From the NCBI GenBank assembly GCA_965215015.1, contig OZ244042.1, positions 4,416,001 through 4,480,000 on the forward strand: DNA of 64,000 bases. Reading direction: 5' to 3'. Each line of letters opens with the position of its first letter. The stretch's first letter is position 1. The position numbers and the translations under genes are program-made. The stretch comes from Candidatus Poribacteria bacterium (lineage in GTDB: Bacteria > Poribacteria > WGA-4E > PCPOR2b). Below the pieces are notes generated by a model, which was not told the origin of the DNA, ran no database searches, and saw only the letters and a list, made by a program, of their open reading frames with translations. Shown one piece after another: positions 21,298-22,901 of the stretch.

Positions 21298-22194
21298 CTA
21301 ATGTGAAACTAATTGCCGTGAAGGTTCAAGGGTGGGAAGATAATCCGGCGTAATCTCATCACCTTCGCAGAGCACTACCGCCCTCGATATCACCCCCCAT
21401 AATTCTCGAACATTCTCCGGCCAATCATACTTATAAAGTAGGTGCATTGCTGCATCAGATACCTTGGGCGGCTTTTTGCTATCTAATTCTGCTTGTTGTT
21501 CAACGAAATGCGTCACCAAGGCTGGGAGATCTTCAAAGCGTTCTCGAAGTGGTGGGGATTGCACCATACAAACACTCAGGCGATAGTATAGATCCGATCT
21601 AAACTTCCTTTGATCGACAAACTGCTTGAGGTCGCCATGGGTTGTACCGATAATACGAACATTGGCGTAAATCGGTTTTGTTCCGCCAACACGGGTAAAA
21701 TAACCGTTTACCAGAAAATCATGCAATCGATTTTGGGTTTCGAGTGGGAGTGTATCAATTTCATCAAGGCACAGCGTGCCATCATTCGCTATTTCCAGCA
21801 TTCCTTTTTTTTCGCTAACTGCTCCCGTGAAAGCCCCCTGTTCATGACCAAATATTTCACTATTGACAAGGGATGTGCCCGTTGATGCTGTGTGAAAAGG
21901 GACAAAGGGGCCGCTTGCATACTTGCTATTATAGTGGATTATCCGGGCGATCAATTCCTTTCCGGTTCCCGTTTCTCCCTGAATTAGGACAGGCGATTGC
22001 GTTGCTGCAATCTTGTGTAAGTTGGTGCGAAACTGTTGCGTCCATGTACTTGTGCCGACTAACTCAACTTTGGGAATTGATGGCACCGAGGACCGCTGTG
22101 GCGTTTCCATTGCGCTCAAGAGTTCTTCAGCTTCATCGACAGTGACTTTGTGGGCATGAAGCAGAGCGAGTACCTTCCGTTGTGCTGCGTACAT
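21298..22194 (-). CDS. Sigma54-dependent AAA+ activator with N-terminal SHOCT-like module and no C-terminal HTH
   Basis: GETGTGKE, GAFTGA, LDEI, FRSDLYYRL, WPENVREL; the protein ends shortly after the AAA+ lid. Confidence 0.88.
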   Translation of the reverse strand: MYAAQRKVLALLHAHKVTVDEAEELLSAMETPQRSSVPSIPKVELVGTSTWTQQFRTNLHKIAATQSPVLIQGETGTGKELIARIIHYNSKYASGPFVPFHTASTGTSLVNSEIFGHEQGAFTGAVSEKKGMLEIANDGTLCLDEIDTLPLETQNRLHDFLVNGYFTRVGGTKPIYANVRIIGTTHGDLKQFVDQRKFRSDLYYRLSVCMVQSPPLRERFEDLPALVTHFVEQQAELDSKKPPKVSDAAMHLLYKYDWPENVRELWGVISRAVVLCEGDEITPDYLPTLEPSRQLVSH

Positions 22195-22253
22195 GATTGT
22201 ACCTCCTAATTTTTTATCGGCAGTCTGTTTCTTAAATTCGGCTATGATTACCC

Positions 22254-22637
22254 CTAAGCGGACTTGTGAAATACACCGCTAAGAGTTTGCATGGCTGCGA
22301 TGCCTTCCTGTGGAGACATCTCACCACACTCGATTGCCTCAAGGATTTCGAGTTGTTCCCGCCGTTTTGCGTGAGGCGCATACCCCAGCGCGTCAATGAC
22401 CTCATCCAGCTTTTTTCGTACCGTTGGGTATGAGATTCCCAGTTCTTTTTCGACCTCTTTAATGTTGCCCCTCGCAACGAGGAACGCTTCAACAAACTGC
22501 TGCTGCTCCGAAGGTAGCAGTCCAAGTTTGGAGATTGGAAAACCTCCTTCCATTGCCATTTCGCAGGAGACGCATTTCAGTTTGACAGGTTCAAGCCGCC
22601 CGTCGCAGATTGGGCAGTTGCTGATTGGTTTGCGCAT
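22254..22637 (-). CDS. DUF2089 family protein (Zn ribbon + HTH + SHOCT-like tail)
   Basis: CPIC...CVSC, GNIKEVEKELGISYPTVRKKLDEVI, EILEAIECGEMSPQE; start MRKPIS behind GAGGAG. Confidence 0.9.
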   Translation of the reverse strand: MRKPISNCPICDGRLEPVKLKCVSCEMAMEGGFPISKLGLLPSEQQQFVEAFLVARGNIKEVEKELGISYPTVRKKLDEVIDALGYAPHAKRREQLEILEAIECGEMSPQEGIAAMQTLSGVFHKSA

Positions 22638-22681
22638 AAACACTCCTCTTAACAAAAAGGATTTCGATTCTACTGCCGCAT

Positions 22682-22738
22682 ATTATAACCGGCAAAATGA
22701 CAAATGTCAAATATAATAATTAATATCATTAATTATTA
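22682..22738 (-). promoter_or_regulatory. Consensus sigma70 promoter with adjacent 11-bp inverted repeat (candidate operator)
   Basis: TTGACA-17 bp-TATAAT (22710-22682); TAATAATTAAT-atc-ATTAATTATTA at 22714-22738. Confidence 0.7.
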
Positions 22739-22901
22739 ACAGATGTTTATCAAGGATATTAATTTTATAAATTGATTTTTAATAAAACAGGTTCCAACTG
22801 TCCGAAATCTATCTGCTCTACTTCGCACCTGTTCCAAATCCTCGCTGAATTGATTTGATTACATGTTTCTATTTTATTTTTGATGACGTTGTACTATAAT
22901 T

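Follow-up and report, generated by a model that had tools for sequence, protein, structure and literature searches.

A stretch of 64,000 nucleotides (nt) from the genome of a Candidatus Poribacteria bacterium (contig OZ244042.1, positions 4,416,001 to 4,480,000; hereafter the window) carries two adjacent genes, one coding for a small DUF2089 protein and the other for a sigma54-type AAA+ ATPase devoid of a helix-turn-helix (HTH) domain. We focused on this pair, which may encode the two subunits of a single regulator. Coordinates are positions in the window unless a contig is named, and both genes are read on the minus strand. The locus contains two open reading frames, 21298..22194 (298 amino acids) and 22254..22655. 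The second most likely starts with the ATG at 22637, which is preceded by AAGAGGAG, rather than at the frame edge at 22655. This start was chosen because 26 of 26 orthologues begin with MRKP, MRQP or VRKP, and it gives a protein of 127 amino acids. A sigma70-type promoter, TTGACA-17 nt-TATAAT, lies upstream on the same strand (22682..22710) and matches the consensus at 12 of 12 positions; the scan returned seven promoter-like sites (mean in shuffled sequences, 3.6), of which this one alone was perfect. The two genes are separated by a 59-nt spacer (22195..22253), where AGGAGG is found 7 nt ahead of the ATG of the AAA+ gene. The two-gene operon under a perfect promoter that had been described in an initial annotation of this DNA was thus recovered, and all peptide strings quoted there are present in the translations.

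The first gene (22254..22637, 127 codons and a stop) codes for a DUF2089 protein with a zinc ribbon, an HTH and a helical tail, as had been proposed. The zinc ribbon comprises residues 8-38 (22524-22616; PF22747, 29.7 bits for a cut-off of 27.6) and the HTH residues 41-86 (22380-22517; PF09862, DUF2089-HTH, 85.5 bits). Cysteines C8, C11, C22 and C25 are invariant across 26 sequences; the cognate DUF2089 proteins share 61-94% identity with that of the window, and in these the four cysteines and the recognition-helix residues do not vary. In the AlphaFold2 model, which has a whole-model predicted local distance difference test score (pLDDT) of 71.7, the HTH helices span residues 43-54, 59-66 and 70-83, and the two-helix tail (residues 89-121; 22275-22373) is formed by helices 89-103 and 109-121, with a pLDDT of 80-89. 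Sub-threshold matches to HTH_8 in 25 of the 26 cognate proteins suggest that this HTH resembles the Fis type. A fold search of the model against PDB returned generic HTH folds only (LuxR/GerE, sigma region 4 and Fis), none of them at E<=0.001.

The second gene (21298..22194, 298 codons and a stop) was assigned to the sigma54-type AAA+ proteins using Pfam, NCBIfam and its AlphaFold2 model (whole-model pLDDT 89.3). Its AAA+ core covers residues 46-211 (21562-22059; PF00158, 193 bits) and its lid residues 217-288 (21331-21546; AAA_lid_14). The Walker A motif GETGTGKE is found at residue 73 (21955-21978), GAFTGA at residues 120-125 (21820-21837) and the Walker B motif LCLDEID at residue 141 (21754-21774), followed by FRSDLYYRL at 198 and ENVRELW at 260. 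The lid WPxN motif begins 41 residues before the end of the protein, and no Pfam match at E<=1 was obtained for HTH_8 (PF02954), receiver (PF00072), GAF or PAS domains. Motif positions and Pfam therefore agree with the earlier description of gene 2 as having intact Walker A, Walker B, GAFTGA and arginine-finger motifs and neither a Fis-type HTH nor a receiver, GAF or PAS domain. The nearest solved chains (FlrA, NtrC1 and FleQ) cover residues 44-288 only. At the N-terminus, the model places a SHOCT-like two-helix module (residues 2-29; 22108..22191), with helices at residues 2-13 and 19-29 and a pLDDT of 79-88.

Conservation of the gene pair

The related genome loci come from Candidatus Poribacteria metagenome-assembled genomes. 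A tblastn search showed that all 17 of these loci have a DUF2089 gene immediately upstream of the AAA+ gene and in the same orientation. A metagenome scan, for which the query was an alignment of the N-terminal 61 residues only, returned 20 loci, 12 of which (L023-L034) contain the hairpin-AAA+ gene; the L023 and L024 proteins are identical, and the L033 frame is interrupted. A DUF2089 gene of 120-122 codons lies immediately upstream in all 11 of the loci that have upstream DNA, L029 with its 53 nt being not assessable. In total, the pair was present in 28 of 28 assessable loci, which confirms its conservation across genomes.

The spacing of the two genes is 42-59 nt in 14 of 17 Poribacteria loci; it is 8 nt in L022, 170 nt in L020 and 364 nt in L017. 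In four metagenome loci (L030, L031, L032 and L034) the two reading frames overlap by 4 nt, with an ATGA that contains both the start and the stop codon. The TTGACA-17-TATAAT architecture recurs upstream of the pair in 11 of 18 Poribacteria loci, and a strong sigma70-type promoter is discernible in most of the ten metagenome pair loci viewed.

A full-length match to the N-terminal region was found in 8 of 81 sampled Poribacteria genomes, all of them belonging to genus g1 (8 of 9, including the window genome), and in none of the 72 genomes of 15 other Poribacteria genera. Three genomes without a full-length match (G059, G062 and G003) have one DUF2089 match each; in G059 and G062 this match adjoins a weak hairpin match, i.e. 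another kind of partner. No conserved membrane protein was seen beside the pair in the Poribacteria and metagenome neighbourhoods.

A family of AAA+ proteins without HTH

A protein search was performed in which 8000 candidates were scored and the best 120 considered. Among these, 90 clusters (P0001-P0090) are 256-301 amino acids long and 59-100% identical, and none of them has PF02954. They are followed by P0091 (345 amino acids, with PF02954) and P0092 (292 amino acids, without it), and from P0093 onward by ordinary activators of 369-518 amino acids. An exhaustive profile search resulted in 215,644 matches at E<=0.001. In ten proteins among the best 150 of these, the alignment begins at residue 1 of the protein and enters the profile at position 1 (eight proteins) or 11 (two); they comprise eight of 272-294 amino acids, one of 348 amino acids with HTH_8 and one of 382 amino acids with another tail. 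A length of 270-310 amino acids was found for 97 of the 101 family members. Their monophyly has a branch support of 100/98 in an IQ-TREE analysis of 30 family members and 34 other activators over 290 columns, from which the columns of the N-terminal module were removed by the fill filter. No HTH remnant was found downstream of the stop codons in the HTH-less loci. The existence of one clade of proteins of about 290 residues, together with this lack of a remnant, rules out that the window gene is a truncated copy and upholds the earlier view of an activator that is HTH-less by design.

A true HTH_8 is nevertheless present in two relatives, P0159/L034 (348 amino acids, 38.5 bits) and P0091 (345 amino acids, 48.5 bits). 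These nest in a well-supported clade of seven together with the HTH-less L028, P0148 and L030 and with P0160, which has a different tail; P0091 is the sister of the HTH-less L028 (84% identity, support 96/81). The tree requires at least two changes of HTH state, and under the approximately unbiased test a topology uniting the HTH bearers in one clade is rejected (p 0.018), this group having been defined after a quick tree was viewed. An HTH of the ATPase's own appears and disappears while the DUF2089 partner persists, which fits redundant DNA binding.

Another tail was observed in L027 (3501-4751), a family member of 417 amino acids in which the AAA+ lid is followed by a C-terminal Biotin_lipoyl domain (49.7 bits). 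L026 (290 amino acids), which is closely related to it, is without Biotin_lipoyl and reads AE instead of DE in Walker B.

The hairpin module

Both the tail of DUF2089 and the N-terminus of the ATPase are predicted to form two-helix hairpins, and we compared them with the SHOCT-like model PF22746. At the aligned AAA+ N-termini of 16 members scanned, PF22746 scored above its cut-off in five (P0143, 45.6 bits; L027, 38.1; P0092, 32.1; P0169, 28.6; P0156, 27.4) and below it in four, with no match in the seven others. It was matched by 12 of 15 cognate DUF2089 tails (best E 3.7e-5). In a profile-profile alignment by hhalign, the tails and the N-termini paired over 28 columns in the expected register (E 8.4e-4). 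Judged from these profiles, the assignment of both hairpins to PF22746 holds at the family level.

The same module recurs in other partners of DUF2089. In six loci (L035, L037, L038, L040, L041 and L042) PF09862 genes adjoin genes with an N-terminal PF22746 and unrelated bodies. The window genome itself has a second DUF2089 locus of the canonical type, outside the window (C1:5259247-5261619, with the canonical dyad at C1:5259247-5261007; L004 1381-3140), in which the DUF2089 tail matches PF22746 with 29.6 bits and the partner is a YvlB/LiaX-like protein whose N-terminus matches it with 32 bits. These loci, along with the accessible text of PMC11237479, support the earlier statement that DUF2089 genes neighbour partners bearing the module. 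One further frame that opens with a hairpin begins near C1:5261503.

Upstream sequences and sigma54 context

The DNA upstream of the -35 element is AT-rich (22711..22800, minus strand) and contains the half-sites ATCAA and TTGAT at 22772-22776 and 22749-22753, as read from the sequence and the alignment; it is a candidate operator or UP-like element. Inverted repeats of the type ATCAA-N(1-11)-TTGAT occur genome-wide at 11-41 sites per spacing, raw counts that are uninformative on any excess. A related 8-mer, AATATCAA/TTGATATT, was found in 11 of 21 upstream regions, including those of unrelated metagenome lineages, for about one expected by chance as a rough estimate; it is not present in the window's own upstream region. 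Boxes of this type recur in AT-rich DNA before the pair, within 200 nt upstream of DUF2089 in L006-L034, and may constitute an autoregulatory operator for DUF2089.

The genome, a single 5.94-Mb contig, was found to contain rpoN, as a 568-amino-acid frame matching TIGR02395 with 372.9 bits summed (cut-off 277). It also codes for about 20 other sigma54-type ATPases. A genome-wide search for -24/-12 sites with at most one mismatch gave 31 sites, none of which lies within the window. One of the sigma54-type sites, a perfect TGGCACGATACTTGCT at C1:920895, is located 72 nt ahead of an Hsp20-like gene, and a site with one mismatch at C1:1524500 is located 23 nt ahead of a ClpB-like gene; in L032 the DUF2089-AAA+ pair is immediately preceded by two Hsp20-like genes (all three names are from the translations). 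Short sigma54-type ATPase frames of 319 and 325 amino acids were observed at C1:4946870-4948709 and 4969593-4971922, beside sigma54-like promoters at 4947540 and 4971697, whose 16-mer TGGCATGGGTCTTGCT is found again at 5669362.

A second sigma54-like gene of 457 codons is present outside the window (C1:872066-873436, minus strand; L002 1441-2814). Its product has a sigma54 DNA-binding domain (85.9 bits), and no activator-interacting or core-binding domain is listed for it by Pfam at E<=0.001. Full-length orthologues occur in 9 of 9 genomes of g1, including the window genome, in 5 of 5 of g6 and in G002. This gene was rejected as the specific partner of the pair, since full-length copies also occur in g6 and G059, where the pair is missing.

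Discussion

We consider the chances about even that the two gene products are the subunits of one obligate regulator, docked through their PF22746 hairpins, in which DUF2089 provides DNA binding, control or both. This reading is based on the strict pairing, the translational coupling, the joint absence of the two genes, the shared module and the general rule linking DUF2089 to hairpin-bearing partners. In such a regulator, DUF2089, with its Cys4 zinc ribbon, its Fis-like three-helix HTH and its hairpin, would be the DNA-binding and probably signal-receiving subunit, and the 298-amino-acid protein, with the N-terminal hairpin as its only accessory part, would be the AAA+ subunit contacting sigma54. 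The C-terminal hairpin of DUF2089 would dock onto the N-terminal hairpin of the ATPase, and DUF2089 would then carry the ATPase to DNA, control its assembly into an active ring, or both. In the window genome the complex would activate sigma54 promoters at a distance, which is the likeliest output here because the genome has rpoN and this ATPase retains all catalytic motifs. The anatomy of the proteins, the strict pairing, the common module, the single origin of the family, the repeated changes of HTH state and the instability of Walker B are observations; docking, tethering to DNA and activation through sigma54 are the steps that we infer.

Several results weigh against this two-subunit regulator. 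The first group concerns DNA binding. The proposal that DUF2089 supplies DNA binding in trans fits the pairing and the shared module, but in L034 an HTH_8-bearing AAA+ gene has its start overlapped by the DUF2089 gene. Since HTH_8-bearing relatives are still paired, DUF2089 is not simply a substitute for a lost HTH, and the supply of DNA binding cannot be the only or the original role of the partner. Neither the window nor 37 loci showed a conserved sigma54 promoter near the operon, and the AATATCAA-type box was not enriched upstream of 375 sigma54-like sites.

The second group concerns the hairpins. The idea of matching modules stands at the family level but not for the window copies: the N-terminus of the window ATPase (residues 16-32) reaches only 14.4 bits with PF22746 (E 0.03, cut-off 27), and the window DUF2089 tail gives no match to it at E<=1. 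Statistical support for the alignment of tails with N-termini is weak, the hhalign probability being only 24%. No DUF2089-AAA+ fusion was found among the 120 best protein matches, the sole longer match being a 229-amino-acid DUF2089 protein, although this is weak evidence. In the single published test, as reported in the accessible part of PMC3581485, a classical SHOCT domain did not self-associate. This weakens homotypic docking; docking may still be heterotypic.

The third group concerns the ATPase itself. Using the same pairwise read-out, the Walker B pair DE was found in 30 of 101 family proteins, versus 163 of 168 other activators; the remaining family members have DK (49), DA (5), DS (4), GP (3), DT (2), DR (2) or other pairs (6). 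The 18 Poribacteria genome copies divide into 7 with DE, including that of the window, and 11 with DK; a switch between Glu and Lys at this position is a single G/A change. On a FastTree phylogeny of the 101 proteins, from whose alignment the Walker B columns were excluded, at least 14 changes between DE and non-DE are needed, at least five of them forced by well-supported branches. The GAFTGA loop is deleted in four of the 101 (P0145, P0158, P0169 and P0247), all on long branches. An intact Walker B, as stated initially, is thus correct for the window copy, but not for most of its relatives. The assignment as a sigma54 activator likewise suits the window copy, which has every motif, whereas part of the family cannot, from these residues, consist of classical activators, and for much of it the label is doubtful.

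A reading to which we give clearly less weight, roughly that of a serious second candidate, is a partner switch in which DUF2089 is an anti-activator that, bound to the N-terminal hairpin, keeps the ATPase inactive and non-hexameric, acting in trans as PspA does on PspF, or in which the ATPase controls DUF2089, the latter being a true sigma70-type factor; once freed, the ATPase would act from solution without an enhancer. The pairing of the HTH-bearing relatives speaks for it, as the conserved role of the partner would then not be DNA binding for the ATPase, and so does the fact that neither an enhancer nor a sigma54 promoter adjoins the operon. The non-transcriptional, Toastrack-type partners in other DUF2089 dyads described in the available portion of PMC11237479 also suggest that the partner controls DUF2089. 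This reading nevertheless leaves two observations unexplained, namely the loss or gain of the HTH at least twice within a shallow clade and the retention of the hairpin in members with a dead ATPase and no GAFTGA; moreover, the zinc ribbon is the only possible signal-sensing domain of the system.

It is unlikely, in our estimate, that the AAA+ partner is not a motor at all and serves as an ATP-binding oligomerisation scaffold or sensor for a DUF2089 factor, largely independent of sigma54, the window copy with its DE and GAFTGA being one state of a drifting family. The scarcity of the Walker B Glu, its repeated switches, the mixture of DE and DK among the 18 genomes and the complete lack of the GAFTGA loop in four members are what such a scaffold would lead one to expect. 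Against it, all 101 family proteins retain Walker A, and unaltered GAFTGA and FRSDLYYRL motifs were found in 91 and 81 of them, respectively, which argues for continuing selection on nucleotide binding and on the contact with sigma54, and the window copy possesses all of these motifs.

A slightly more speculative model, which we also hold to be unlikely, starts from a known Walker B variant. According to the accessible text of Darbari et al. (2014; PMC4132715), the E108Q substitution in PspF abolishes hydrolysis, and the ATP-bound variant still engages and remodels the RNA polymerase-sigma54 complex, DNA melting requiring hydrolysis. The family might then be a sigma54-engaging module tethered to a zinc-ribbon/HTH protein, for which ATP hydrolysis is optional, and lineages might toggle between a Glu-containing activator and an ATP-locked form that engages or traps RNA polymerase-sigma54 at DUF2089-bound sites for repression or poising. 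PspF E108Q is a laboratory mutant, whereas here forms with Lys, Ala, Ser or another residue in place of Glu are natural and make up the majority of the family, 71 of 101. If true, the toggling would be a natural counterpart of the E108Q phenotype and a novel use of a sigma54 activator.

Membrane co-anchoring appears improbable. In this scheme each hairpin would fix its own protein to the membrane's inner face, and co-localisation would couple both to an envelope signal. Anchoring of proteins to the underside of the membrane by SHOCT-like domains is predicted in the part of PMC11237479 that was accessible, and the lack of self-oligomerisation of the classical SHOCT (PMC3581485, as above) is compatible with it. 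A DNA binder and an activator held at the membrane would, however, be kept off promoters; helix 2 of the N-terminal module, which contains VDEAEELL, is highly acidic and, judged from the sequence, unlike what would be expected of a lipid-binding helix; and the neighbourhoods did not reveal the conserved membrane protein that could accompany such a pair. Finally, HTH-less activators working from solution in the style of FlgR or CtcC have precedent, but that the ATPase is such an autonomous protein merely co-transcribed with an unrelated autoregulator, DUF2089, is very hard to believe in view of the 28/28 pairing over distant lineages, the overlapping stop and start codons, the common module family and the absence of the two genes together in the genomes checked.

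Comparison with known systems

PspF retains its HTH, and PspA inhibits it by way of a patch on the surface of the AAA+ domain. The window protein is similar to PspF in being a minimal activator of about 300 amino acids that would need control from a separately encoded protein; it differs in having no HTH, and no pspA-like gene lies beside the window operon. Known HTH-less activators include FlgR of Helicobacter, CtcC of Chlamydia and FleT of Rhodobacter/Cereibacter, which share with the window protein a sigma54-type AAA+ core with GAFTGA and the lack of any Fis-type HTH at the C-terminus. FlgR and CtcC each have a receiver domain, and the partner of FleT is another activator, whereas here the sole accessory is a hairpin of 30 residues and the partner is a small zinc-ribbon/HTH protein. 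As far as the accessible text of PMC7277832 goes, FleT acts in a hetero-oligomer with its DNA-binding partner FleQ.

For DUF2089, the accessible text of Ravi et al. (2024, mSystems; PMC11237479) describes an architecture of zinc ribbon, HTH and SHOCT-like domain in Toastrack neighbourhoods. These dyads have the same DUF2089 architecture as the pair studied here and an adjacent partner that opens with a PF22746 hairpin; the body of the partner is Toastrack or another domain there, and PF00158 with AAA_lid_14 here. We found no published description of DUF2089 with an HTH-less sigma54-type partner, the supplementary tables of PMC11237479 being a place where it might be listed. The pair brings together in a new way the DUF2089 dyads and the HTH-less activators, both of them known, and the unstable catalytic Glu is an unexpected addition.

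Conclusions

Enhancer-binding proteins are textbook one-chain machines, composed of sensor, motor and DNA-binding domains. In the family described here all that is left of the motor is its core and a hairpin of 30 residues, and its gene is always accompanied by that of a separate zinc-ribbon/HTH protein bearing the same hairpin. The system is compact, with two genes on about 1.4 kb, and can readily be tested in vitro. The instability of the Walker B Glu, with GAFTGA and Walker A kept, raises the question of whether sigma54 activators can evolve non-hydrolysing regulatory forms. If the hairpins dock, they would provide the PF22746 SHOCT-like module with a function that can be tested, and would represent a modular plug that links the widespread, uncharacterised DUF2089 signalling proteins to sigma54.

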